Shown here piece after piece: positions 15,655 to 37,321 of a DNA stretch of 64,000 nt. The first letter of the stretch is position 1; each line of letters starts with the position of its first letter. The notes under the pieces were generated by a model that saw only the letters and a program-made list of their open reading frames with translations, did no database searches and had not been told where the DNA came from. Both the position numbers and the translations under genes were made by a program. The DNA is from an uncultured Nitrospiraceae bacterium (lineage in GTDB: Bacteria; Nitrospirota; Thermodesulfovibrionia; Thermodesulfovibrionales; SM23-35). The stretch is from contig CAVSHB010000004.1 of assembly GCA_963727775.1 (NCBI GenBank), positions 160,001-224,000 on the forward strand, written 5' to 3'.

Positions 15655-16593
15655 GTGCATATGGTTGTGTCTCAAGAGCAAAAGGAATGTATCTGCGTTG
15701 GGGCGTACCAATCGAAGCTGCTCAGTGAGTATCTGGATTTCTTGTTCAAGCATCGGGGCATTTCAGAAAAGACCATCCGTTTTCGAAGGAATGATGTTGG
15801 GCCTTTTCTGAGATCACTGAGACTACAAAATGATTCGGAAGATATCGGGAAGATATCAGGAAAGGAGATTCACGATTACGTTATCAAGACGGCTAAACAC
15901 ATGAACCGTCCAAGTCAAAAACATGTTGTTACATCAATTCGAAGCTTCTTAAAGTTTTGCCATTTCAAAGGATATGTCCATCAAAACCTTACAGACGCTG
16001 TCCCAGTTATTGTAACCCCCAAATTAGGGAGAGTTCCTCGCAGTATCCCATGGGAGTCTGTCGAAAAACTTCTTGATAGTACCGATCGTGAAACTCATCG
16101 TGGCAGAAGGACTTATGCAGTATTACAACTATTGGCGACATATGGGGTGCGAATAGGTCAGGTAGTAAAACTCCTGTTGCAGGACATAAACTGGCGTAAA
16201 GGCTTAATCCATATTCAGCCGAGCAAGGGCGGTAACCCTTTAACTTTCCCTCTTTACCCAAAGGTTGCAGATGCGCTGCTTGCCTATATACGGGAAACAC
16301 GTGGTAAGGCTACCTATCCAGAAGTGTTTCTTACTATTGATAACCTTATGCCTCTGAGGGCCGTTGCTCTTTCGGTCTTAATGCAGAGATTTTTCCGTAG
16401 TGCAGGTATCGCTGCGAGTGCACATGCCATACGGCATGCCTTTGCGACACGACTGATGGAACATGAAACCCCTATCAAGACGATAGCTGATTTGTTGGGG
16501 CATAAATCTATAAACACCACCTTCATCTATACAAAAGTCGATCTCAAACACCTTCGTCTTGTGGCGTGTGAATGGCTGGAGGTTTTGTCATGA
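15655..16593 (+). CDS. Tyrosine recombinase, RIT element first subunit-like
   Basis: GVRIG, HAIRHAF, LLGH, TFIY catalytic set; GGAGG RBS; ATGA coupling to the next recombinase. Confidence 0.88.
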   Translation: MHMVVSQEQKECICVGAYQSKLLSEYLDFLFKHRGISEKTIRFRRNDVGPFLRSLRLQNDSEDIGKISGKEIHDYVIKTAKHMNRPSQKHVVTSIRSFLKFCHFKGYVHQNLTDAVPVIVTPKLGRVPRSIPWESVEKLLDSTDRETHRGRRTYAVLQLLATYGVRIGQVVKLLLQDINWRKGLIHIQPSKGGNPLTFPLYPKVADALLAYIRETRGKATYPEVFLTIDNLMPLRAVALSVLMQRFFRSAGIAASAHAIRHAFATRLMEHETPIKTIADLLGHKSINTTFIYTKVDLKHLRLVACEWLEVLS

Positions 16594-17087
16594 AAAAACT
16601 ATCAAACGGACCATTCAGTATTTTTATTAACCAATATCTGCAGCTGCGCCGGTCACTTGGCCGTATTCTTAAAGACGCCGAGTACACCCTGAATAAATTC
16701 AATTTCTATTTAGCCCGATACTTTCCAGATGCGAAAACTGTGACGAAGCCAATGATAGTCAGCTACCTTCAAGCGGCCAAACACCTGCATGCATCTACCT
16801 TATATCTTCGGTTTATACATTTGCGCCAGTTCTGCCGGTTCCTATTTCAGCTCAACCCGGATAATTACGTTCCAGAATCAAGATTGATTAAACGAGGGCC
16901 AACTATCAGACCGCCCCATATCTATACGACTGAAGAGGCAATGAAATTGATCAGGTTGGCAAGAATGCTTAATCCTCGTGGTTCATTGCGCCCCCACACC
17001 TATAGCACATTGATTTCGCTTTTGTGGGTATCCGGCCTGCGGATTAGAGAAGCTCTGAAGCTGAATTTAGAAGACGTTTTGTGCTAA
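16590..17087 (+). pseudogene. Truncated second RIT tyrosine recombinase
   Basis: PHIYT, LRPHTY, SGLRIREAL, then cut at 17080 by the IS end; lacks HxxR/H/Y. Confidence 0.85.
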
Positions 17088-17164
17088 CGACCAGATAATG
17101 ATACCAAAGATTTGAGGAAATAGGGTGACACTCCAAGTTTAGGTTAACGAAAGGAGTGTCATAG

Positions 17165-18727
17165 ATGGAACCAGCAGAGGGTGTACAAAAGAGCAGTACA
17201 AAGAGGAAGTTTCCGAAGCGAAGCAATCGTTACGGGCCCGATTTCAAGCTTCAAATAGTCAAGAAGTACGTTGAGGAGAGCGTTCCCGTTCCGGTGATCC
17301 GGCAGGAATGCGGAGTGAGCAGTAATTCGGTAAGACGCTGGGTACGTGCCTATCGTCGTGAGGGCGAAGCCGGACTATCGATGAGGTACACCGGTAAGGG
17401 ACGCAGCCTTCCCACTCCAGTGAAAGAGAAGATCGTCGAAATCAAAGAAGGCAACCCGCTTTTCGGTATCAAGCGCATTTCGCAACTATTAAAGAGAGTG
17501 TTTTTCCTTTCCGCCAGCCCTGAGACGGTCCGTAAGACACTGCATGAATCATCCCTCATGACGGCCCCACCCAAGAAGCGGCAGCGTAATATTACCCGTC
17601 CCCGGTTTTTCGAGCGATCAACACCGAACCAGCTTTGGCAGACGGATATCTTTACGTTTCGACTTGGGGGCCGCTATGCGTTTCTGATCGGCTATATAGA
17701 CGATTATTCCCGCTACATAACGGGGCTTGAGCTTTTCCGCAGCCAAACGGCGCAGAATGTTATAGAGGTATACCGTCGGGCGGCCTCCGAGTACAACCCG
17801 CCCAAAGAGATGCTTACGGATAATGGGCGGCAGTATACGAGCTGGCGCGGCAACAGCCGCTTCGAACTGGAGTTAAAGAAAGACAAAATCCACCACATCA
17901 AATCGCAGCCTCACCACCCGATGACATTAGGGAAGATAGAGCGATTCTGGAAGACGATTTTTCTGGAGTTCCTAAGCCGAGCCCAGTTCGGTAGCTTTGA
18001 AGATGCGGTTGAGCGGATACGTCAGTGGGTGAAGTATTACAACCATAAAAGGCCGCATCAGGGTATCGGCGGCTTGTGTCCCGCAGACCGGTATTTTGAG
18101 ATCCAGAGCGAGCTTAGAAAGACCATCGAGCAGGGCATCCAGGACAACCTCCTTGAGATGGCGCTAAGGGGCAAGCCGCGCCTGCCGTTTTACATGGTGG
18201 GCCGGATGGAGGGGCAGTCGGTGGTGCTGCGTGCGGAAAAGGGCAGGCTGAGGTTGTCGGTTGACGCCGAAAACGACGACATTACGCAGGAAGTAGTTTA
18301 CAATCTAAATGAGAAAGGACATGACAATGGAGAAGACGGAGAAGATAAAGAGCGAGAAGAAGCGGCAGCCGATGAACTACGGGGCAATGGAAAAGTGCAA
18401 GGCGGTACTGTCTGTATGGACGGAGAGGCGCAGACCGGCGGAGATATGCCGGGAGCTGTCGATCCCCTGGATGGCGCTTGCGCACTGGCAGAGGCGGGCG
18501 ATGGAGGGGATGCTCCAGGCGCTGGAGCCGAGGGTGAGCCTGGACAGGGGGCCAGCGCTTTCTCCCCGCTTGCAGGCGTTGCTGGAGAAGAAGCGTCTGA
18601 CGCTCTTGACGAGCACAGTGCAGGGCAGACTGGAAAGGACGCTATCAAAGGCACAGGAAGCAAGGAAAGCGGAGACGCCTCAGTCGAAGGAGATAAAACC
18701 CTCCGGCGAAGCCTTGCGGAAAACTGA
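17165..18727 (+). CDS. IS481/rve-family DDE transposase with acidic C-terminal tail
   Basis: N-terminal HTH; WQTD, DDYSR, TDNG, GKIERF, YNHKRPH. Confidence 0.88.
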   Translation: MEPAEGVQKSSTKRKFPKRSNRYGPDFKLQIVKKYVEESVPVPVIRQECGVSSNSVRRWVRAYRREGEAGLSMRYTGKGRSLPTPVKEKIVEIKEGNPLFGIKRISQLLKRVFFLSASPETVRKTLHESSLMTAPPKKRQRNITRPRFFERSTPNQLWQTDIFTFRLGGRYAFLIGYIDDYSRYITGLELFRSQTAQNVIEVYRRAASEYNPPKEMLTDNGRQYTSWRGNSRFELELKKDKIHHIKSQPHHPMTLGKIERFWKTIFLEFLSRAQFGSFEDAVERIRQWVKYYNHKRPHQGIGGLCPADRYFEIQSELRKTIEQGIQDNLLEMALRGKPRLPFYMVGRMEGQSVVLRAEKGRLRLSVDAENDDITQEVVYNLNEKGHDNGEDGEDKEREEAAADELRGNGKVQGGTVCMDGEAQTGGDMPGAVDPLDGACALAEAGDGGDAPGAGAEGEPGQGASAFSPLAGVAGEEASDALDEHSAGQTGKDAIKGTGSKESGDASVEGDKTLRRSLAEN

Positions 18728-18737
18728 GAAACCGTAG
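18327..18737 (+). CDS. Small HTH protein overlapping the transposase tail out of frame
   Basis: AAAGGA RBS; KCKAVLSVW...AEICRELSIPW..LAHWQ HTH-like; basic. Confidence 0.6.
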   Translation: MEKTEKIKSEKKRQPMNYGAMEKCKAVLSVWTERRRPAEICRELSIPWMALAHWQRRAMEGMLQALEPRVSLDRGPALSPRLQALLEKKRLTLLTSTVQGRLERTLSKAQEARKAETPQSKEIKPSGEALRKTEKP

Positions 18738-18881
18738 CGTAGAGACATCCTAATAATGGGGCAAGGCAGAAAACGGGTGATGGTTAAATATGGACCGAGT
18801 TGAGAAAATCGATTGTAGGGCTTCTGAGGAAGGCGATTTTCTCTCAATCCGAAGATTTTTAGTTGTTAAAGGGAGTGTGCT

Positions 18882-19268
18882 ATGAGCGACTCAAAGGATA
18901 AGGAGCGTGCCCGCCAAAGAGCAGCGGTGGTGTTTGCCGTGCGCAGCGGCCAGATAACAGCCGAGGAGGGTGCGCGCCGACTGGGCGTGTCCCGCAAGAC
19001 CTACTACGAATGGGAAAGCCGGGCATTACAGGCGATGACAGAAGCCATGGAAAACAAATCTGCCGGCAGACCGAACATGCCGCAGGACGAGGAGAAGCAG
19101 CGTTTACAGGAGGAGGTTACCGAACTCCGGAAGAAGTTGTTTGTCGCTGAAAAGACGGTAGAAGTGCGGGATATGTTGCATGCGTATGAGTTGCAGAATG
19201 CCGGTGATAAGAAAAGCGTCCCGACAAATCGGGAGGAAAAAAAACGAAAGCAAAGGAAGAAACGATAA
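18882..19268 (+). CDS. HTH/coiled-coil OrfA-like protein
   Basis: TAEEGARRLGVSRKTYYEWE HTH; A-run slippery site near 3' end. Confidence 0.75.
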   Translation: MSDSKDKERARQRAAVVFAVRSGQITAEEGARRLGVSRKTYYEWESRALQAMTEAMENKSAGRPNMPQDEEKQRLQEEVTELRKKLFVAEKTVEVRDMLHAYELQNAGDKKSVPTNREEKKRKQRKKR

Positions 19269-19273
19269 CTCGT

Positions 19274-20317
19274 ATGCTTGCCATGATTGACCAGATCAGG
19301 GAGAGGACCGGGATGCCCTACAGAGCGATCTGCTATGCCGTAAGACTGCCCTACCCGAGTTTTATGCGGTGGCGCATACGGCGCAAAAAAGATACGCCCT
19401 TGGTGCGGCAACCTGGTCCTCCCAAGGTCAAGCCACCGGATTTTGGCAAGATTGAGCAGGATATAGCACAGTTATCTCACGGGCACAATCGCACGCAGGG
19501 AACCGGGGCGTTATATGTTCGCTACGGATCCACCGTATCAAGGCGGAAGCTGCATACAATGGTAGCAATGGCGCGGCACGATCTCAATACCTACCATCGT
19601 CAGAATCTGCGGCGCATCCGCTGGAACGTGCCGAACGTCGCCTGGTCCATGGACCCCTGCGAATACGAACAGCGTGACGCAACTGGTGCAAAGGTATACC
19701 TGAACCAGATGCAAGATCTCGCGTCACGCTATAAGTTTAATCCCATGACGGGAGAAGTTCCCTGCGGCGAAGAGATATCCGGCTATCTTGCGGCAACCTT
19801 CAATCGGTTTGGAGCACCCCTGTTCCTAAAACGGGACAATGGAGGTAACCTCAATCATGCAGCTGTCAATGACGTGCTTGCCGATTATTTTGTCCTACCG
19901 GTGAATAGCCCGGTCCATTATCCGCCTTATAACGGTGCGATCGAAGAGGCGCAAACCGAGCTGAAAAATGGGCTTGCCGCTAAGCTCTCGTACAGGCCCT
20001 TTTGCCCACGAGAACACATAGAGGCATACGCCTCGACGGTTGAGCATGATCTTAATCACCAACCTCGTCCGTGCTTGAACGGTAACAACGCCTGCAGGGT
20101 GTACTTCATCGGAAAAAGAGCTTTTTCCAAATGGGAAAGGAGGGATGCCTATGTTTGGATAACGACCTTGCAGAGTGATATACTTTGCAGTGAAGGGGTT
20201 CAGCCCCAGGCGGCTTGGCGCATCGCCGTGGAGGCATGGCTGAACATGAAAGGCTTTATTACGATTACGATTAATGGAAAAGTGTTACCCAATTTTTTCT
20301 CATTTCGGTATCATTAA
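19274..20317 (+). CDS. Second integrase-core (DDE) transposase, OrfB-like
   Basis: WSMD, QDLASRY, KRDNG, YNGAIE. Confidence 0.78.
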   Translation: MLAMIDQIRERTGMPYRAICYAVRLPYPSFMRWRIRRKKDTPLVRQPGPPKVKPPDFGKIEQDIAQLSHGHNRTQGTGALYVRYGSTVSRRKLHTMVAMARHDLNTYHRQNLRRIRWNVPNVAWSMDPCEYEQRDATGAKVYLNQMQDLASRYKFNPMTGEVPCGEEISGYLAATFNRFGAPLFLKRDNGGNLNHAAVNDVLADYFVLPVNSPVHYPPYNGAIEEAQTELKNGLAAKLSYRPFCPREHIEAYASTVEHDLNHQPRPCLNGNNACRVYFIGKRAFSKWERRDAYVWITTLQSDILCSEGVQPQAAWRIAVEAWLNMKGFITITINGKVLPNFFSFRYH

Positions 20318-23718: not shown

Positions 23719-23747
23719 TTGACAAAATTATAAAATATGCTTATATT
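23719..23747 (+). promoter_or_regulatory. Sigma70-type promoter of the ArsR-selenoprotein operon, overlapped by a candidate operator
   Basis: TTGACA-17 bp-TATATT; palindrome AATAT-N4-ATATT overlaps the -10 box. Confidence 0.65.
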
Positions 23748-23782
23748 CGAAAGTAAGAATGTATTTCAATAGGAGGAATGAC

Positions 23783-24124
23783 ATGCTTTCTATGGGTCAA
23801 AGAATAGAACTCTTGAAAATTATTGCTCATCCCGTGAGAATCCGTATCCTTGAAGAACTTTCAAAGGGTGTCAAATGCGTGAGCGATTTCGAGGAGTTCC
23901 TTGACATAAGACAACCTAATGTATCGCAGCATCTTTCGCTTCTGAGACATTACGGCATAGTGGATTACTATATGGACGGAAGGCTTAGGTGCTATTTTCT
24001 TATTAACCCGATCATACCTGATCTTCTCGAACTGCTCAGAAAGGATTACCGCGAATCACTTCCGCGTCCTGCGTGTTGTCCAATAACCAAGAAGGGCGTG
24101 TATCCGGGGAACAGGGCAAGATAA
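23783..24124 (+). CDS. ArsR/SmtB-family transcriptional regulator
   Basis: AHPVRIRIL, KCVSD, QPNVSQHLSLLR; C-terminal ACCP; AGGAGG RBS. Confidence 0.9.
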   Translation: MLSMGQRIELLKIIAHPVRIRILEELSKGVKCVSDFEEFLDIRQPNVSQHLSLLRHYGIVDYYMDGRLRCYFLINPIIPDLLELLRKDYRESLPRPACCPITKKGVYPGNRAR

Positions 24125-24174
24125 TAATATCAGCAAGATAGTTTCAAGATTTAAAGGATACAAGGAGGCAAAAG

Positions 24175-24501
24175 ATGAAAATTGGGATTCTTATTTCAAC
24201 AGGTGACGCAGAGACGGTCTGGAATGCCTTCCGTTTTGCGAACCTCTGTCTGAACACAGACGTGACCAACGAAGTGTCGATTTTTATGCATGCAAAGGCA
24301 GTCGAATACGAAAGCTGCAACTCTGAGAAGTTCAACATCAAAGAGCTTGCAAAAATGTTTGTCCTGAGTGACGGAAAATTGCTCGCATGCGGCAAATGTT
24401 TGGGCTTCAGGGGATTAGAAGATAATGATATCTGCCGTAAGGGCAGTCAGAAAGATCTGTACGAAATGGTCACCACGAGCGACAAGCTTGTCTGCTTCTG
24501 A
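24175..24501 (+). CDS. DsrE/YchN-family sulfur relay protein
   Basis: ETVWNAFRFAN, LLACGKCL..RG, SDKLVCF. Confidence 0.85.
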   Translation: MKIGILISTGDAETVWNAFRFANLCLNTDVTNEVSIFMHAKAVEYESCNSEKFNIKELAKMFVLSDGKLLACGKCLGFRGLEDNDICRKGSQKDLYEMVTTSDKLVCF

Positions 24502-24545
24502 GATGTCATTGGAATGTCAGCTCTGAGAAAGGGAGGTGAATTATT

Positions 24546-24797
24546 TTGGTAAAAATAACAATCTATTCCAATCGACCCGCCGGAAAGCGGTGAACCAATC
24601 TCTGTGCTTTGGCCGGGAAAGTCAAAGAAAAATATCCCAAAGATGTAGAAGTGGAAACGGTCTATTCCGGTTTCCTTGGTCTTGGTCATAAAGGAGATGC
24701 CGTCAAGCCCCCTAACATAGCCGTTGACGACACAATACTTGGAGGCGAAGCCACTTTTGAAGACATTGAAAAAGCTGTTATGGGAAAACTGTCTTAG
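24546..24797 (+). CDS. Small thioredoxin-like selenoprotein (NxPxGxxU motif), 83 aa
   Basis: GGGAGGTGA RBS, TTG start, MVKITIYSNRPAGKR-TGA(24591-24593)-TNLCALAGKV..., in frame with the 24609 ORF; SECIS-like hairpin CTTTGGC/GTCAAAG. Confidence 0.75.
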
Positions 24798-24822
24798 AGA
24801 AGACGATGGAGGTGCGGATGTT

Positions 24823-26559
24823 ATGAAAAGAATAATATATGCGGGAGTCCTGTTTTTAGTCTTTGTGAGTTGTGTCTCTCTGGCGCAGGCAGAAATCCAA
24901 AATGCAGACCGCGTTCGGGGCCAGATTGTCGCTGAGGCAAAAAAGGGAGGATATCAGCTCATCACACCTGAGGAACTCAAAAAGGAATATCTAAAAGATT
25001 CATCCGCGTTTCTTCTTGTAGATACAAGGCAGGAGTGGTCGTATCAGATGCAGCATATCAAGGGGTCCTTACATATTGACTTTGCTCCGACCTGGTGGAA
25101 TCAATACTCACCTATGATGCGGTCGGAGATGAAAGCCCTTCTCGGTACTGAAAAAAATAAGAAAATTGTCTTTTATTGAGACGGTTTAACGTGAGTGCGA
25201 AGTCACGGTGCGGCCAGTTTGGCTGTAAAACTTGGATATAAGAATATATACCGTTTCGCTGAGGGCCTTCCGACATGGAAAGAGATGGGATTGCCTCTTG
25301 AGGCGGGTCGCGCATCTTATGGAGCGTCCGGAGGACAGAAAGGTATTTCGACTGTTATTGGCACGGGCTTGATCCTGACACTTCTCGGAGTATTTATAGG
25401 GGGAATAGCCCTTAATCTTACTCCCTGTGTTTATCCTCTGATCCCAATTACAGCTTCCTATTTTGGCGGTAGGAGTGAAACAGGTGAACGTCAGGGATAT
25501 CTTCTTCTCCACGGCCTTCTCTATATTCTCGGGCTATCTGTCATGAATTCTGCCATTGGAGTTTCAGCAGCATTCACTGGCAGGCTCATGGGCTCATTTC
25601 TTCAGCATCCTGCTGTGCTTATTTTTGTCTCATCTGTATTGCTCCTAATGGCGCTTAACTTCTTTGGCTTATGGGAACTCCGGCTGCCAAGCTTCCTGAG
25701 TTCCGTTGTATCAAAATCCCACACCGGTTATGTCCAGTCACTCTTCATGGGACTGACACTCGGTATAATTGCTGCTCCCTGTATCGGTCCGTTTATTATA
25801 GGGCTTCTGACCATGGTTGCCCAGAGGGGTGATCCCTGGTACGGTTTTCTCATATTCTTTACTCTGAGCATCGGCCTCGGATTACCGCTATTTATTCTAT
25901 CGATATTTGCCGGAAATGTAAGCAAGCTCCCCCGATCAGGTGAATGGTTGATATGGATCAGGAATCTTTTCGGATGGATCATGCTTGCCATGGCTGTATA
26001 TTTTGTAAAACCATTGTTACCGTGGCATGATGCCGGAACTTACATGCTGGCATTAATTGCTTTGGCTTCAGGAGTTCATCTGGGCTTCGTTAGTAAGACA
26101 GGTAAAAATTTGAGAACTTTCACTATTATCAAAAGAAGCATAGGTATTCTTGTGATAGGATTATCTATCTTTCTTGCAGGCTCCGTCCTCTTACGGGGAC
26201 CAGGGGTATCCTGGCGGCCATATTCTCAAGACACGTTCTCAAAAGCGATGGCTTCAAATAAACCGATAATCATTGACTTCTATGCGGATTGGTGTACACC
26301 GTGCGGTCAGTTGGACAAAAAAACATTTCATGACAAGGAAGTTGTTAAGGAATCCGCTAAATTCAGCATGATCAAAGTTGATCTGACGAAGGAAGCTAAT
26401 CCCGATGTTCTGCAACTGTTGAAAAAATATGATGTCAAGGGTGTGCCGACGGTTATATTCCTTGATCCTCGCGGTCAGGAAATAAAGGAATTGGAGATTG
26501 TGGACTACATCCCCGGTAATGAATTTTTGCCGAGAATGAAAAAGGCATTAGGAGAATAA
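24823..26559 (+). CDS. Exported rhodanese-DsbD(beta-gamma) fusion selenoprotein with two Sec, 578 aa
   Basis: Signal peptide; rhodanese LVDTR...HIKGS...VFY-TGA(25177)-DGLT-TGA(25192)-VRSHGAA...GLPTW; DsbD LTPCVYP, AAPCIGP, WCTPC; all one frame. Confidence 0.85.
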
Positions 26560-26566
26560 CCGAGTA

Positions 26567-27277
26567 ATGAAACTAAAAAAAATAGTCGTCTTGATCGTTA
26601 TTTCCGCCTTAATCGTGGCAGTTAAGGTATTTCACCTCGACCAGTTCCTCACTCTTTCATATCTGAAGGGATCATTGGATAAGCTGAAAGCCCTCTATGA
26701 AAACCACAGGGTGCTGGTCATTGCAGGCTATTTTGTCATTTACGTTCTTACAACCTCTATTTCCTTGCCCGGAGCTTCTCCGTTAGGTATCGCTGGAGGA
26801 GCGCTGTTCGGTTTCTGGACAGCGACAATCGTGGTCTCTTTCGCAAGCTCTATCGGCGCCACACTGGCATGTTTAGTTTCCCGCTATCTACTAAGGGACT
26901 GGATACAAAGTAAATTCGGTGACAAGATTGCAAAGATCAACGAAGGTATCGAAAAAGAAGGCGCGTTCTATTTATTCACCCTGCGGTTGATTCCGGTATT
27001 CCCTTTCTGGATGATCAACCTCACTATGGGTCTGACAAAAATGTCCCTTATTAAATTCTATTGGGTATCACAGATAGGAATGCTTCCCGGAACTATGGTT
27101 TTTGTTAACGCCGGAAAGGAACTTGCAAAGATTGATTCTCTCAAGGGAATTTCCTCTCCAGGCCTGATCATTTCATTTGCACTCATCGGCATATTTCCCA
27201 TAGCGGTAAAGAAACTGGTGGCTTTATACCGTTCCAGGATGAAGAAGACCGCTGGCGATGCCGGAAATATTTCCTGA
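26567..27277 (+). CDS. TVP38/TMEM64 (DedA/SNARE-associated) membrane protein
   Basis: SLPGA, GGALFG, LRLIPVFPFW.IN, SQIGMLPG. Confidence 0.88.
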   Translation: MKLKKIVVLIVISALIVAVKVFHLDQFLTLSYLKGSLDKLKALYENHRVLVIAGYFVIYVLTTSISLPGASPLGIAGGALFGFWTATIVVSFASSIGATLACLVSRYLLRDWIQSKFGDKIAKINEGIEKEGAFYLFTLRLIPVFPFWMINLTMGLTKMSLIKFYWVSQIGMLPGTMVFVNAGKELAKIDSLKGISSPGLIISFALIGIFPIAVKKLVALYRSRMKKTAGDAGNIS

Positions 27278-27285
27278 GGGCATCC

Positions 27286-27603
27286 ATGGGAAGGTATGAA
27301 GAAATAACAGACGCGCTACAAATCCTCGGATTATATGAATCCGCAACAGTAAAGGAAATCAAGAACAAGTATCGGGAATTGCTCAAAGAATGGCACCCTG
27401 ACTTATGTAAGGAAAATGAACATATTAGAAAAGAAAGAACTATTGAGATCATCAATGCGCACAGAACAATAATGGATTATTGTGAGCAATATAGATTTTC
27501 GTTCTCCAGGGAAGAAGTTGAAAAATATGTATCTCCTGAAGAACTTTGGGCAAAACAATTTGGAAAAGACCCAATATGGGGAAACTATCAAGATGATGGA
27601 TAA
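27286..27603 (+). CDS. Small DnaJ-domain protein
   Basis: ILGL...EIKNKYRELLKEWHPD. Confidence 0.82.
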   Translation: MGRYEEITDALQILGLYESATVKEIKNKYRELLKEWHPDLCKENEHIRKERTIEIINAHRTIMDYCEQYRFSFSREEVEKYVSPEELWAKQFGKDPIWGNYQDDG

Positions 27604-28237
27604 GATAACTATATTTGATAAATATGCCGAAGAATATGATAGATGGTTTGATACGAATTCATTGGTGTATCAATCAGAAGTGCGGGCAGTGAGAATGCTG
27701 CTGCCTCAAAATGGCCAGGGGGTTGAAATAGGAGCTGGTACAGGAAGGTTTTCAGTTCCATTGGGAATAACACTCGGCGTTGAACCTTCAAGAGCAATGG
27801 CCGAAATTGCAAGAAGCAGAGGAATGACGGTATATGATTCAAAAGCAGAGAATCTACCATTTGATGATAATACATTTGATTTTGTATTAATGGTCACAAC
27901 AATCTGCTTTCTTGAAGATCCGTTGCAAGCAATAAAGGAAATCAGAAGGATTCTTTGTCCTTCGGGAAAGCTCATCATCGGTATGCTTGACAAAGATAGT
28001 CCTCCTGGAAAGGAGTCTCTCTCTAAAAAGAAGAACAGCAAGTTTTATCAGTATGCCAATTTTTATTCGGTCAACCGTGTCTTGAACTGGCTTAAGATAT
28101 CAGGATACAATCATATTCATGTTCTCCAAACAATCTTTAAGAAACCGGAAGAAATAATTGTCTTAGAGCCGATAAGAGAGGGATATGGAGAGGGATTGTT
28201 TGTTGTAATTTCTGCTCAAAAAGGAAAGACAATTTGA
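27593..28237 (+). CDS. Class I SAM-dependent methyltransferase
   Basis: FDKYAEEYDRWF, EIGAGTGRF, LPFDDNTFD. Confidence 0.88.
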   Translation: MMDKITIFDKYAEEYDRWFDTNSLVYQSEVRAVRMLLPQNGQGVEIGAGTGRFSVPLGITLGVEPSRAMAEIARSRGMTVYDSKAENLPFDDNTFDFVLMVTTICFLEDPLQAIKEIRRILCPSGKLIIGMLDKDSPPGKESLSKKKNSKFYQYANFYSVNRVLNWLKISGYNHIHVLQTIFKKPEEIIVLEPIREGYGEGLFVVISAQKGKTI

Positions 28238-28331
28238 AAAGGTTAGTTCAGTTGGTAAGGTACCGTCATCGCTTAATCGTCAGATGGCCTACCCGTCATC
28301 GAAGAAATCAATTAATATCTCGAAGAACTTT

Positions 28332-29381
28332 CTACAAAATCCTGATACAGGGAGTTGGATTTGATATCGCGTTCCCAATTATTGAGGCAGTTTCCATCCC
28401 TGCAGTTTTCAATTCATTAACTAATTGGTCCGCCTGGGATTCAGGAACCGACAGGAGAAGACCCCCCGATGTCTGTGGATCAAAGAGTAATTCCGCCTCT
28501 TTCTCTGACAACTTTGTAATTATTTCCAGACGTCCTTCTGATAATTTCCTGTTTGCCTTATTGCTGCCGGTGGTTTCACCTTTACGATACATCTCAAGAG
28601 AATGAGGATAAAACGGCAGTTCATTATAGAAAAGATCTATTTGTACTCCACTTCCCGTTGCCATCTCCAATGAATGTCCAACAATGCCGAACCCCGTTAT
28701 ATCGGTACATGCATGGATGTCGAAACTCAGTGCTGTATCAAGAGCCTTTTTATTAAGGGCTGCTACGCGAGGCAGGATAACTTCCAGTTCTTTGAAGGAT
28801 AGTTTCCCCGATCTACACGCATTAAACAATACACCGGTGCCCAAAGGTTTTGTGAGGACCAAGACATCCCCTTCCTGAACTGCGCAGTTTGTCAGTATTT
28901 TATCGGGATGAACGACTCCCGTAACCGCAAGGCCGTACTTGGGCTCATTGTCATCTACAGAATGTCCGCCGGCCATAGAAGCACCGGCTTCGTTGACTTT
29001 GTCATTCCCGCCACGGAGTATTTCTTTCAAAACACTCTTGTCAAGTTTCTTGGGGGGAAACATGACGAGGTTCAAGGCAGTGAGAGGTTTGCCCCCCATG
29101 GCATAGATGTCCGAGAGAGAATTCGCTGCAGCGATTTGTCCAAACCAATACGGATCATCCACCGGCGGTGTAATAAAATCGACGGTACTGATAAAGGCCA
29201 TCTCGTCTGATAGGCGGTACACTGCCGCATCGTCACAAGTATTGAACCCGACAAGCAGGTTCGGATCGTTAGAAGCGCTTAGTGCCTTGAGTGCTTCCGC
29301 CAGATCTGACGGACCTATTTTAGCTGCTCAGCCGCATGTCCGGGAGAGTCCTGTAAGAGTTCTTTTCTTGAAGAGACGCAT
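28332..29381 (-). CDS. selD: Selenide, water dikinase (selenophosphate synthetase), Sec-containing
   Basis: MRLFKKRTLTGLSRTCG-TGA(29330-29328)-AAKIGP...DDAAVY in frame with the 29222 ORF; TVDFITP, AANSLSD.YAMGG, TKPLG, DPQTSGGLL; SECIS-like hairpin TCCGTCA-GATC-TGGCGGA. Confidence 0.93.
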
Positions 29382-32593: not shown

Positions 32594-34948
32594 TCAATAC
32601 ATTGTTTCTGCCATATAACAAATTTCCGGAAGCAGATATGAGACCAGGTCTCTAAACGTAACCATCCCGATTATCTTGTCCCCTTCAACAACGGGCAGGT
32701 GCCTTATCTTCTTCCTGGATGCGATTGAAATCGCTGAGCTGACTTCAGTCGATGGATCAAAGGTTGCGATATCACGCATTGCGAGATGGTCAATGATCTC
32801 AATGGTCGGGGTATTATTAAAAACGCACCTTACAATATCTCTTTCAGTAAATATGCTCACTAACTTGTTATTTTCATCGACTACAAATAATCCGCTTACG
32901 TTCTTCTCACTCATAAGTTTGACCGCATCCGAAATTGTGCTCCCTTTGTTAATGGATACTATTTCATAAGGCCTTGATTCCAGGATATCCTTTAATGTCA
33001 TTTTGCGCCTCCTTTCAATGACCTCCAACTGCTCTGAGGGTATCTTCAGCTCCTCTTCAAGCCTCTCATACATCTTCCTTATTATCTTTACCGCATTTAC
33101 AGGGCAGGCATAATAACATGCCTTGCATTTTGTGCAATAGTCCCTGTCGATAATGAAACTCCTTCTCGTCTCCTTTACCGCATCAAAGGCACAGGCCTGC
33201 TTGCACAGGCCGCAGAGTATGCACTCATCCTGGACTATTACAAGTATACCGAGGTTGCATGCCTTTGCCCTGCAGTATTTATCATAAATATGTTCTTCAT
33301 ATTCTTCACGGAAATATTTGATCGTTGTAAGCACGGGGTTAGGCGCGCTCTGGCCGAGCCCGCAGAGAGAGCCCGCTTTTACAAGCTTGCCGAGACGCTC
33401 AAGCTTCTCTATGTCCCCTTCCTCTCCGTTGCCGGTCGCTATCTTCTCAAGTATCTGCAGCATCTGGTATGTCCCGATCCTGCACGGAGGACATTTCCCA
33501 CATGACTCGGCCTGCGTAAATGACAGAAAAAACTTGGCGATGTCGACCATGCAGTTGTCTTCGTCCATGACAACCATTCCGCCGGAACCCATGATAGACC
33601 CCACCTTTGTCAGAGAGTCAAAATCAACGGGCAGATCAAGATATTTCTCGGGGATACACCCCCCCGATGGACCCCCGGTCTGGACCGCCTTGATTTTCTT
33701 ACCGCCCATGATACCGCCGCCGATATCGAACACTATCTCCCGCAGGGTTATCCCCATTGGGACTTCAACAAGTCCCGTGTTCTTGACTTTACCTGTCAGC
33801 GCGAATACTTTAGTGCCGGGAGAGTTTTCAGTGCCGATGCCGAGGAACCAATCCGCGCCTTTCTCGATAATCGGGGGAACACACGCATAGGTCTCGACGT
33901 TATTCAGATTCGCAGGATATCCCCACGGTCCCCCGCCGGGTTCCGAAACCCTCGGCGGTCTTGCGTGAGGGAAACCCCTTCTGCCTTCGATTGAGGCAAC
34001 CAAGGCCGTGGCCTCTCCACAAATAAACGCCCCCGCGCCTTCCCTGATACTAACCGTAAAATCAAATCCGGTGCCGAGGATGTTTTCTCCCAATAGCCCG
34101 ATTTCCTCTGCCTGTTTAATAGCTGTCCTTAAATTTCTTACTGCGAGGGGATATTCATGTCTGACGTAGATAAATCCATAGTGTGCGTCCACTGCGTATG
34201 CGCAGATAAGCATTCCTTCAAGAAGGCTGTGGGGGTCGCCTTCCATTATCGACCTGTCCATAAATGCGCCGGGGTCGCCTTCGTCTCCATTTGCAATAAC
34301 TATTTTGATGTCTCCGGGCGCTTTTCTGGTATGCGCCCATTTCACGCCCGCCGGGAATCCGGCGCCTCCCCTGCCCCGGAGATTAGACTTCTTTATCTCC
34401 TCTATCACCTGCTCAGGGCCCATTGAGGAAAATATCTTTTCCGCAGCCCTGTACCCGCCGACTGTAATATAATGGCATATATTCGTTGGGTCGATTGTTC
34501 CGTTATTCCTGAGCGCAATCCTCATTTGTTTTTTATAAAAGGGCACTTCCTCCATCATCTCAACAGGCTTATCAAGAAAAGTGCCCTTATAGAGGAGATT
34601 TCTTACGGGGCTGTCCGCCAAATATGTGGTGGAAAGGATCTCATTTACATTCTCCTGTTTCACTCTCTGGTAAAAATACCCGTATGGCTCTATCTTCATA
34701 ACAGGACCTTTCTGGCATAGACCCTGACAACCTGTTTCAACCACTTCAATCTCTATCTCGTTCCTGCGGGCTTCCTTTTTTAACTGTTCCACCAATTTAA
34801 GAGATTCATTTGCACGGCACCCTGTGCCGCAACAAACGCTTATCCTTTTCTTGCCGGGAGCTAAAACACCTTCCCTGGCGAGAAGTTCACGAAAGGCAAT
34901 AAGATCATCAATACTTTTAAGCTTTTGTATGGTGTTTATTTCTAACAT
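32594..34948 (-). CDS. HydB/NuoF-like FMN/NADH Fe-S subunit with C-terminal CBS pair (paralogue 2)
   Basis: CCGTGC..GCQGLC, RGRGGAGFP, GDEGDPGAFM, GAFICGE, GGPSGG, ESCGKCPPC, two ferredoxin motifs, CBS (IRHLPVVEG..GMVTFRD). Confidence 0.9.
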   Translation of the reverse strand: MLEINTIQKLKSIDDLIAFRELLAREGVLAPGKKRISVCCGTGCRANESLKLVEQLKKEARRNEIEIEVVETGCQGLCQKGPVMKIEPYGYFYQRVKQENVNEILSTTYLADSPVRNLLYKGTFLDKPVEMMEEVPFYKKQMRIALRNNGTIDPTNICHYITVGGYRAAEKIFSSMGPEQVIEEIKKSNLRGRGGAGFPAGVKWAHTRKAPGDIKIVIANGDEGDPGAFMDRSIMEGDPHSLLEGMLICAYAVDAHYGFIYVRHEYPLAVRNLRTAIKQAEEIGLLGENILGTGFDFTVSIREGAGAFICGEATALVASIEGRRGFPHARPPRVSEPGGGPWGYPANLNNVETYACVPPIIEKGADWFLGIGTENSPGTKVFALTGKVKNTGLVEVPMGITLREIVFDIGGGIMGGKKIKAVQTGGPSGGCIPEKYLDLPVDFDSLTKVGSIMGSGGMVVMDEDNCMVDIAKFFLSFTQAESCGKCPPCRIGTYQMLQILEKIATGNGEEGDIEKLERLGKLVKAGSLCGLGQSAPNPVLTTIKYFREEYEEHIYDKYCRAKACNLGILVIVQDECILCGLCKQACAFDAVKETRRSFIIDRDYCTKCKACYYACPVNAVKIIRKMYERLEEELKIPSEQLEVIERRRKMTLKDILESRPYEIVSINKGSTISDAVKLMSEKNVSGLFVVDENNKLVSIFTERDIVRCVFNNTPTIEIIDHLAMRDIATFDPSTEVSSAISIASRKKIRHLPVVEGDKIIGMVTFRDLVSYLLPEICYMAETMY

Positions 34949-36760
34949 TTAATCCCCATCGCCAAATGTTGTCATCTTAATAATCAATTAATACGTATTT
35001 TCCGCCATATAACAGATTTCCGGAAGCAGATATGCAACCAGGTCCCTATATGTAATCATGCCGATTATCCTGTCTCCTTCAACAACAGGAAGATGCCTGA
35101 TTTTTTCCCTTGAGGCTATTGCGATTGCAGAGCTTATTTCTGTAGAAGGGTCGAAGGATGTGATGTCCCGCATCGGTATATTTTCCAATTTTTCGTCAAA
35201 AGACGTTCCGTTAAACACACAACGCACAATGTCTCTCTCGGTAAAAAGCCTCATTAATTTATTGTTTTCATCAACCACGAAGACCCCGCTGATATTCTTC
35301 TCTGTCATGATATGCACCGCGTCAGCAATAGTATTATCTTTACTGACAGAAACTACATCATGAGGTCTCGATTCAAGAATATCTCTTAAAGCCGTCCTCC
35401 GCCTCATTTCAATGACTTCCAGCTGTTCCGAAGGTATCTTCAGCTCCTCTTCAAGCCTCTCATACATCTTCCTTATTATCTTTACCGCATTTACAGGGCA
35501 GGCATAATAACATGCCTTGCATTTTGTGCAATAATCCCTGTCGATAAAGAAACTCCTTCTCGTCTCCTTCACAGCATCAAAGGCGCAGGCCTGCTTGCAC
35601 AGGCCGCAGAGTATGCACTCATCCTGGACTATTACAAGTATACCGAGGTTGCATGCCTTCGCCCTGCAGTATTTATCATAAATATGTTCTTCATATTCTT
35701 CACGGAAATATTTGATCGTTGTAAGCACGGGGTTAGGCGCGCTCTGGCCGAGCCCGCAGAGAGAGCCCGCTTTTACAAGCTTGCCGAGACGCTCAAGCTT
35801 CTCTATGTCCCCTTCCTCTCCGTTGCCGGTCGCTATCTTCTCAAGTATCTGCAGCATCTGGTATGTCCCGATCCTGCACGGAGGACATTTCCCACATGAC
35901 TCGGCCTGCGTAAATGACAGAAAAAACTTGGCGATGTCGACCATGCAGTTGTCTTCGTCCATGACAACCATTCCGCCGGAACCCATGATAGACCCCACCT
36001 TTGTCAGAGAGTCAAAATCAACGGGCAGATCAAGATATTTCTCGGGGATACACCCCCCCGATGGACCCCCGGTCTGGACCGCCTTGATTTTCTTACCGCC
36101 TATGATACCGCCGCCGATATCGAACACTATCTCCCGCAGGGTTATCCCCATTGGGACTTCAACAAGTCCCGTGTTGTTGACTTTACCTGCCAGAGAAAAA
36201 ACCTTTGTCCCGGATGACCCGGGAGTGCCGATGCCGAGGAACCAATCCGCGCCTTTCTCGATAATCGGGGGAACACACGCATAGGTCTCGACGTTATTCA
36301 GATTCGCAGGATATCCCCACGGTCCCCCGCCGGGTTCCGAAACCCTCGGCGGTCTTGCGTGAGGGAAACCCCTTCTGCCTTCGATTGAGGCAACCAAGGC
36401 CGTGGCCTCTCCGCATACAAAAGCGCCTGCCCCTTCTTTGATATTAACCGTAAAATCAAATCCGGTGCCGAGGATGTTTTCTCCCAATAACCCGATTTCT
36501 TCTGCCTGTTTAATGGCGTTTTTCAATGTTTTGATGGCCAACGGATATTCATGTCTGACGTAGATAAACCCATAGTGTGCATCCACTGCGTATGCGCAGA
36601 TAAGCATTCCCTCAAGAAGGCTGTGGGGGTCGCCTTCCATTATCGACCTGTCCATAAATGCGCCGGGGTCGCCTTCGTCTCCATTTGCAATAACTATTTT
36701 GATGTCTCCGGGCGCTTTTCTGGTATGCGCCCATTTTACGCCTGCCGGGAATCCGGCGCC
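33040..36760. repeat. Near-identical ~1.3-kb direct repeat (33040-34366 vs 35434-36760)
   Basis: Constant 2394-bp offset; even the antisense ORFs 33290-33505 and 35684-35899 translate identically. Confidence 0.9.
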
Positions 36761-37321
36761 CCCTCTCCCTCTCAGGTTGGCATTTCTTACCTCTTCAAGG
36801 ACCTGCTCGGGCATCATGGATGAAAACATTTTTTCAACAGCTTTATACCCGCCGGCCGCTATATAATGACGGATGTCGAAAGGGTCGATGTTCCCGGTAT
36901 TCCTGAGCGCGATCTTCACCTGCTTTGCATAAAAAGGAACTTCTTCCAGTAAGGCCTTCGGCGCTTCAAGTATGGAATCTCTGTATATCAGTTCTCTCAA
37001 CGGCTGTCCGGTTGAGTAAGTGGAAGAAATAATCTCATGTGCTTTTTCAGCTTGGACCTTTTGATAGAAAAATCCATACGGCTCAATCTGTATAATGGGC
37101 CCCTTCTGACACAGCCCCTGACAACCGGTCTTCACAATATATACCTGCGCATTGGAATTTGAAGCCTCTTCTTCCAGCGCCTGAACGACTTTTTGAGAGC
37201 CCAGAGTGCTGCACGGCAGGCCGCAGCAGACCTTCAAAGCATTTCTACCGGTCCTGAACATCTCCCCGCCAAGGAGTTCTCTGAGGCCGCTTAGCGCCTT
37301 TATATTGTCTAATCTATTCAT
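34988..37321 (-). CDS. HydB/NuoF-like FMN/NADH Fe-S subunit with C-terminal CBS pair (paralogue 1)
   Basis: Same motifs as paralogue 2; N-terminal CCGLPC. Confidence 0.9.
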   Translation of the reverse strand: MNRLDNIKALSGLRELLGGEMFRTGRNALKVCCGLPCSTLGSQKVVQALEEEASNSNAQVYIVKTGCQGLCQKGPIIQIEPYGFFYQKVQAEKAHEIISSTYSTGQPLRELIYRDSILEAPKALLEEVPFYAKQVKIALRNTGNIDPFDIRHYIAAGGYKAVEKMFSSMMPEQVLEEVRNANLRGRGGAGFPAGVKWAHTRKAPGDIKIVIANGDEGDPGAFMDRSIMEGDPHSLLEGMLICAYAVDAHYGFIYVRHEYPLAIKTLKNAIKQAEEIGLLGENILGTGFDFTVNIKEGAGAFVCGEATALVASIEGRRGFPHARPPRVSEPGGGPWGYPANLNNVETYACVPPIIEKGADWFLGIGTPGSSGTKVFSLAGKVNNTGLVEVPMGITLREIVFDIGGGIIGGKKIKAVQTGGPSGGCIPEKYLDLPVDFDSLTKVGSIMGSGGMVVMDEDNCMVDIAKFFLSFTQAESCGKCPPCRIGTYQMLQILEKIATGNGEEGDIEKLERLGKLVKAGSLCGLGQSAPNPVLTTIKYFREEYEEHIYDKYCRAKACNLGILVIVQDECILCGLCKQACAFDAVKETRRSFFIDRDYCTKCKACYYACPVNAVKIIRKMYERLEEELKIPSEQLEVIEMRRRTALRDILESRPHDVVSVSKDNTIADAVHIMTEKNISGVFVVDENNKLMRLFTERDIVRCVFNGTSFDEKLENIPMRDITSFDPSTEISSAIAIASREKIRHLPVVEGDRIIGMITYRDLVAYLLPEICYMAENTY

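Follow-up and report, generated by a model that had tools for sequence, protein, structure and literature searches.

Tso, the 'three selenoprotein operon', is named together with its proteins TsoA, TsoB (with a UxxxxU motif), TsoC, TsoX and TsoY in a 2026 review that cites Haft & Tolstoy 2025 (PMC13188914). A literature survey at the level of titles and abstracts found no tested function of Tso, and the original Tso description may already mention forms that lack TsoA or occur in Nitrospirota. Here we describe a selenoprotein operon related to Tso in a stretch of 64,000 nucleotides (the window; positions 160,001 to 224,000 of contig CAVSHB010000004.1, assembly GCA_963727775.1) from an uncultured Nitrospiraceae bacterium. 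When TGA is read as selenocysteine (Sec, U), seven genes, arsR-dsrE-tsoC-like-tsoB-dedA-J-domain-methyltransferase, lie on the plus strand and selD lies convergent on the minus strand (Table 1). An earlier reading of the DNA letters (the original prediction) had described this arrangement as a selenium/sulfur redox island, and the genes were found at that place: the intergenic distances from arsR through the J-domain gene are 50, 44, 25, 7 and 8 nt, the J-domain and methyltransferase genes overlap by 8 nt, and 94 nt separate the stop of the methyltransferase gene from that of selD. The observation is confirmed, and the operon is a real, well-conserved selenoprotein operon.

SqrR/BigR repressors use an alpha2/alpha5 Cys pair. 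They share the ArsR fold with the window ArsR, whose homologues stand first in operons containing SQR-like, rhodanese, TauE and DsrE genes, whereas the window ArsR has its cysteines at positions 32, 70, 98 and 99 and scores 48.1 bits against the SqrR/BigR model NF040642 (cutoff 155), at which this assignment was rejected. Like DsbD/ScsB/CcdA, TsoB has a Cys pair in its membrane domain and a thioredoxin domain in the periplasm, but it carries a two-Sec rhodanese in place of the N-terminal Ig-like alpha domain and reaches 235.7 bits against the DsbD model NF001419 (cutoff 330). The DsrEFH type II sulfur transferase of sulfate reducers occurs in Nitrospirota, according to the main text of PMC13293266, which has 0 mentions of 'selenocysteine' or 'ArsR'. 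A DsrE/F/H trio, perhaps of this type, is the main ArsR cargo in other Nitrospirota genomes, while the window has a single DsrE-family gene. According to PMC13510729, the periplasmic selenoprotein MccSep reduces polysulfide and selenite and is also found in Thermodesulfovibrionia; there is a likeness in periplasmic Sec chemistry on polysulfide or selenite and in overlapping taxa, but MccSep is an unrelated multiheme protein and serves as a functional precedent only.

Comparison with canonical Tso

TsoB of the window scores 838.6 bits against its curated model NF045694 (cutoff 805) and has the UxxxxU motif as FYUDGLTUVRS in a rhodanese/DsbD fusion. With TsoB above a curated family cutoff and Tso named in the 2026 review, the system is not uncharacterised in the sense of unnamed, as had been supposed; the core protein is already catalogued and the gain is incremental. 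The locus is further like Tso in the TsoC-type Sec thioredoxin that adjoins TsoB, in the ArsR-family gene at its head, and in DedA, which often lies downstream in Tso. On the other hand, it has no TsoA, a dsrE has been added, a selD paralogue lies nearby, and the host belongs to Nitrospirota. Its regulator is not TsoR, an identity rejected at 31.9 bits against NF045707 (cutoff 115), a model that gives 164.7 and 169.7 bits with regulators of other lineages (L025 and L031). The tsoC gene stands upstream of tsoB, scores below its cutoff and encodes UxxxC, and only two selenoproteins are found in the operon. With model NF045695, TsoA was not found in this genome or in 54 genomes of the family; the same model gives 203.5 bits on the control locus L047 and matches in 17 of the 301 genomes of the order, as distant TsoA-like genes (L197-L201) with one TGA, below the cutoff and outside this family.

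By these tests (no TsoA, no TsoR, TsoC below cutoff) the operon is not canonical Tso, but it probably works like Tso. Since TsoA and TsoR are dispensable in this variant, TsoB and TsoC would form the minimal unit. With our confidence evenly divided, we read the operon as a lineage-specific, rearranged Tso variant in one Nitrospirota (Thermodesulfovibrionales-type) family, which would, on induction, supply the periplasm with reductant for reactive chalcogen species.

Table 1. Features of the operon and its surroundings, in window coordinates
Feature	Position	Strand	Remarks
Sigma70-type promoter	23719..23747	+	-35 TTGACA 23719-23724, -10 TATATT 23742-23747, spacer 17; 11/12 match
Candidate ArsR operator core, ATATTC-N8-GAAT(A/G)T	23743..23762		Over the -10 box; predicted, 23/30 loci
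ArsR/SmtB repressor, 113 aa, Cys32/70/98/99	23783..24124	+	HTH_5; Cys pattern in 30/30 homologues
DsrE-family protein, 108 aa, CxxC	24175..24501	+	Pfam DsrE; relatives behind the same ArsR have UxxC
Divergent TsoC-like thioredoxin-fold (predicted) selenoprotein, 83 aa, U16 and Cys20, TTG start	24546..24797	+	TGA 24591-24593
TsoB, 578 aa: signal-like helix, rhodanese U119/U124, DsbD membrane domain C202/C320, thioredoxin domain C491/C494	24823..26559	+	TGA 25177-25179 and 25192-25194
Two tandem SECIS-like (selenocysteine insertion sequence-like) hairpins	25190..25226	+	First overlaps second UGA; single-sequence z -1.3 to -1.6 (modest)
DedA/VTT-domain membrane protein, 236 aa	26567..27277	+	Usual companion of tsoB: 14/16 Nitrospirota, 16/43 other loci
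Lone J-domain protein, 105 aa, HPD motif	27286..27603	+	Accessory: 5/16 Nitrospirota, 2/43 other tsoB loci
Class I SAM (S-adenosylmethionine) methyltransferase, 213 aa, one conserved Cys	27596..28237	+	Accessory; not ArsM-like
Sec-containing SelD, U18 (TGA 29330-29328), downstream hairpin	28332..29381	-	Extra paralogue, convergent, outside operon

TsoB is present in 16 of the 57 genomes of the family, above the cutoff in 15 and with at least two TGA in all; in the phylum sample of 301 genomes, this genome alone has TsoB above the cutoff. The 16 related Nitrospirota tsoB loci contain tsoC (15; 9 divergent and 6 canonical), arsR (13), dsrE (10), selD (6) and TauE (4) besides the companions listed in Table 1, and these counts are minima, as four contigs stop close to tsoB. 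All seven genes occur together in L142 and L146 too. Among 43 full-length tsoB loci of other lineages (mostly Thermodesulfobacteriota), drawn from the best 80 of at least 592 matches with rows lacking the rhodanese domain uncounted, tsoC was found at 39, tsoA at 27 and an ArsR-type match at 23. A FastTree phylogeny of 60 rows, built on the DsbD part, groups the 15 rows of the family into one clade; since its sister is not resolved, no donor lineage is named for TsoB. The names of close homologues point to Thermodesulfovibrionales.

Selenocysteine codons in three genes

Four in-frame TGA codons fall in three genes, as U16 of the 83-aa protein, U119 and U124 of TsoB, and U18 of SelD. They are Sec codons, as the original prediction had read them, because TGA is kept across loci, the downstream hairpins pair, and selA, selB and tRNA-Sec are present in the genome (3.43 Mb, 96.8% complete); a reading of the UGAs as stops of a pseudogene or a split gene was rejected. 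Two selB genes score above the curated cutoff (G000:C3:368296-370146 and G000:C1:1564881-1566725), the latter about 17 kb from a second selD. In the window itself, no tRNA gene was found and an Rfam scan gave 0 matches.

TsoB shows eight hydrophobic segments, a WCTPC motif, and folds that match DsbD-gamma and rhodanese, an anatomy that supports the trans-membrane reducing architecture claimed before. In the predicted structure, U119 and U124 sit in the rhodanese active-site loop between strand 114-118 and helix 126-136. Both TGA codons were recovered by pattern at 49 of 51 loci (L018, a duplicate of a counted locus, was omitted); L057 has both on reading, and in L062 the rhodanese domain is missing. 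Both Sec columns hold Cys in four of five full-length database homologues. Gene callers split TsoB at UGA, and among the 120 database matches listed, nearly all are without the rhodanese domain. Across 49 sequences, 99% of cells are paired in the hairpin after the second UGA and 92% in the two hairpins together, a level that 0 of 500 shuffles reach and for which slid partners give 25-55%; the compensatory changes mostly split two lineages and represent few independent events. The hairpin of the first UGA overlaps the second UGA (25177-25226), so that the recoding signals are nested, and a C-G to G-C change divides the two lineages.

The 83-aa protein has no Pfam match, and no signal peptide was seen in it. 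It scores 26.1 bits against the TsoC model NF045708 (cutoff 45; the canonical control L017 gives 149.9) and has NRPAGKRU in place of the motif NEPxGxxU. Alignment with canonical TsoC by hhalign gave 96.9% and E 1.3e-10 over 80 columns, with Sec in the same column, and the divergent form has an extra Cys four residues past Sec. The structure model (pLDDT 89) matches thioredoxins with probability 1.0 but with E of at least 4e-3, and supports the thioredoxin nature proposed originally. The SECIS of the gene taken alone is not significant (z 0.41), and the same stem is predicted in 6 of 10 sequences. Judged by sequence and model, the 83-aa protein is a divergent TsoC with a predicted thioredoxin fold.

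A four-cysteine ArsR and its cargo

The TTGACA box and its spacing are found again 5' of homologous arsR genes. Because the promoter is the top scorer of 12 matches in the region and shuffles likewise give a mean of 12.0, its support is its position and conservation. The original prediction had placed a palindrome over this promoter: the promoter and a conserved operator core stand, but the long palindrome (23727-23770) is imperfect, with 72% complementarity. At up to two mismatches, the core ATATTC-N8-GAATAT precedes 23 of 30 homologous arsR genes and is found in 2.5% of shuffles, an optimistic comparison since the motif was derived from the same 30 loci. A genome-wide scan gave 42 sites at up to one mismatch, and the motif is too common to define a regulon.

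The four-Cys ArsR is present in 190 of the 301 genomes of the order, far wider than TsoB, and our survey of titles and abstracts found no description of this branch. It is absent from all 21 genomes of another family (f11), 17 of them with selA; its co-occurrence profile with selA is uninformative, selA being present in 274 of the 301 genomes. We examined 74 arsR loci, namely the 30 best matches, 4 chosen for tsoB and 40 hand-picked along the ranking for the length of contig downstream. Within 4.5 kb downstream were DsrE (49), DsrF (34), DsrH (34), SQR-like (25), TauE (21), selD (20), tsoB (12) and YedF (2) genes. A co-oriented Sec motif lies within the same distance at 66 of the 74 loci (63 of 70 without the 4 chosen for tsoB), compared with a background of 7 in 1522 windows of the present genome. 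The motifs are Sec-DsrE (35), Sec-SelD (20), TsoC (19, three of them with no backing similarity match) and TsoB (11). Eight loci have no Sec motif; at one, the contig stops 22 nt past the gene. L111, L115, L158, L184 and others have ArsR followed by a UxxC DsrE (truncated by gene callers), DsrF, DsrH, an SQR-like flavoprotein and an MMPL transporter. Pfam searches of 53 of the 90 unassigned neighbouring ORFs (open reading frames) from 45 loci, with shadow-frame-like and housekeeping ORFs left out, found three rhodaneses and no Acr3, ArsC or ArsM. In other loci the genes behind this ArsR encode sulfur and selenium carriers, which gives a hint of the operon's purpose.

A selD paralogue inherited with TsoB

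The window SelD scores 376.8 bits against TIGR00476 (cutoff 125) and has the N-terminal motif CGUAAK. Its clade (73-90% identity; other SelDs are 38-51% identical) was found, with a quick version of the tree, in 10 of the 57 family genomes, that is, in 9 of 16 TsoB-positive and 1 of 41 TsoB-negative genomes (Fisher p 1e-5, with kin not independent). The paralogue lies beside the island in five of the ten carriers, upstream and co-oriented in four and convergent here, and apart from it in the other five, the closest relative included. Co-transcription of selD as an operon member was rejected on this arrangement. Thus the window selD is co-inherited with TsoB and is not an operon member; of the 'bundled' selenophosphate supply in the original prediction, the inheritance holds but the bundling does not. 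Seven of the ten carriers have a second selD. The second, housekeeping-type gene that had been suggested as a check was found elsewhere in this genome; it is Sec-type, 49% identical, and a few kb from yedF-like and cysteine desulfurase-like genes (read from translations).

Proposed function and alternatives

We propose, as a reading that could fall either way, that the operon encodes an inducible relay in which a Sec-thioredoxin of the cytoplasm reduces, by way of DsbD, a two-Sec rhodanese on the periplasmic side, and this rhodanese would turn over polysulfide-type species. The proposed electron route follows DsbD chemistry. TsoC (U16/C20) would hand electrons to C202/C320 in the membrane; these two Cys would reduce the CxxC (DsbD-gamma-like) domain on the periplasmic side, and that domain in turn the U119/U124 pair of the rhodanese, which takes the usual place of DsbD-alpha. 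Sulfane sulfur of polysulfide or of species formed from S0 would be accepted by the rhodanese and set free again by reduction, and selenium analogues might be handled likewise; DsrE may act as a persulfide carrier in the cytoplasm. Modification of its thiols by such species would free the four-Cys ArsR from the operator. The extra SelD would allow more selenophosphate to be made, and DedA, the J-domain protein and the methyltransferase may be helpers. A polysulfide-type substrate is suggested because DsrE/F/H, SQR-like and rhodanese genes are the ArsR cargo elsewhere, and the host has dsrA.

Several points weigh against this reading. The 74 ArsR loci, all of related genomes, were taken from the top of the ranking or picked by hand, and the full-length TsoB model has a pTM of 0.44 and does not resolve the domain contacts. 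The window ArsR does not carry the BigR signature, so that persulfide sensing remains a proposal; canonical Tso has a different regulator, and the association of ArsR with its cargo may reflect the capture of an unrelated cassette. In 4 of the 16 Nitrospirota loci the cassette is directly followed by arsenosugar genes (ArsS, an ArsS-ArsM fusion and a TIGR04282 glycosyltransferase).

More tentatively, and with doubt prevailing, the unnamed order-wide ArsR may be a reactive sulfur/selenium sensor that heads interchangeable Thermodesulfovibrionales selenoprotein cassettes (Sec-DsrE/F/H with an SQR-like enzyme and an exporter; selD-TauE; tsoC-tsoB). The capture of tsoBC by this ArsR would then mark TsoB as a periplasmic diselenide rhodanese supplied over a DsbD wire. 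TsoB would be a new kind of terminal reductase for polysulfide (or selenium), and the SelD paralogue would travel along with it. The variant offers a contextual handle on Tso, in that the same repressor and predicted operator serve tsoBC here and sulfur/selenium relay genes elsewhere; the signal of the 113-aa ArsR would bear on the whole set of selenoprotein cassettes. The regulator and its implication for Tso function are the point of most interest.

Among the alternatives, selenium acquisition or homeostasis survives best, as an unlikely one: ArsR would sense selenium species, TsoB would reduce periplasmic selenite or Se0-derived species, DsrE would carry selenium and SelD would activate it. 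The co-inheritance of the selD clade with TsoB fits this, as do the 20 selD genes behind the same ArsR, often with TauE and twice with YedF, and the selenoprotein in nearly every ArsR cassette. Yet the commonest cargo, DsrE/F/H with the SQR-like flavoprotein, points to sulfide chemistry, ArsR is absent from the f11 genomes even where selA is present, and scavenging selenium with proteins that cost three Sec would be awkward.

Arsenic handling, in which ArsR would sense As(III) or thioarsenicals and TsoB and TsoC would feed reductant to arsenic methylation or arsenosugar synthesis, is less probable again. The vicinal C-terminal Cys pair of the window ArsR presumably resembles the Acidithiobacillus ArsR site (PDB matches are only weak). 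In L017 and L147, dedA is followed by ArsS or an ArsS-ArsM fusion, the glycosyltransferase is downstream in L015 and L142, arsS lies 7.8 kb off on the other strand in L014, and a Sec-type ArsS is encoded elsewhere in the genome. Against this, the glycosyltransferase occurs at only 1 of the 43 non-Nitrospirota tsoB loci and arsS at 0 of 43, and the 53 tested ArsR neighbours include no Acr3, ArsC or ArsM. A separate conventional ArsR with an ELCVCD site adjoins a permease elsewhere in the genome, and the methyltransferase, with its one conserved Cys, stays far under the ArsM cutoffs. As separate observations, the fusion of L017 (12094-14076) lies right behind tsoB-dedA, and the Sec-type ArsS radical SAM gene (G000:C1:769805-770707) has one in-frame TGA.

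General periplasmic redox upkeep (disulfide repair, oxidative stress or cytochrome c maturation) amid a loose set of mobile stress genes is the least probable alternative, for the conventional DsbD core of TsoB, the varying gene order and accessory genes, and the insertion elements 3-8 kb upstream are outweighed by the patchy occurrence of TsoB, its invariant two-Sec rhodanese loop, and the ResB and cytochrome c assembly genes elsewhere in the window.

Accessory genes and neighbouring features

Pfam assigned the eight proteins, in gene order, HTH_5; DsrE; none (the 83-aa protein); Rhodanese, DsbD_TM and Thioredoxin; VTT; DnaJ; Methyltransf_11; and AIRS. The gene identities given originally were broadly right, but 'DnaJ' is a lone J-domain, and the score of the 83-aa protein does not reach the TsoC cutoff. 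ArsM arsenite methyltransferases have several conserved Cys. The window methyltransferase scores 16-26 bits against ArsM cutoffs of 240-575 and has one conserved Cys in 9 aligned homologues, and its identity as ArsM was rejected. Full-length matches to it occur at 4 of the 16 related Nitrospirota loci and 5 of the 43 others; methylation as a core step, part of the original prediction, was rejected on this rarity and the single conserved Cys.

In L014 (G006), selD and dedA are apparently frameshifted and the methyltransferase is a fragment, which suggests decay or an assembly error. A dedA paralogue 68% identical to that of the window (G000:C1:811050-813225) is followed by a flavoprotein reductase gene with a TAG stop and lies downstream of msrB/msrA-like genes. 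An insertion-sequence block at 15655-20317 of the window (integrase, HTH and a 347-aa ORF with no Pfam match) recurs at G000:C4:52466-55618 near a distant dedA paralogue. Further downstream, tandem near-duplicate NuoF-like genes with C-terminal CBS domains (32594-34948 and 34988-37321) adjoin a CODH/acetyl-CoA synthase cluster.

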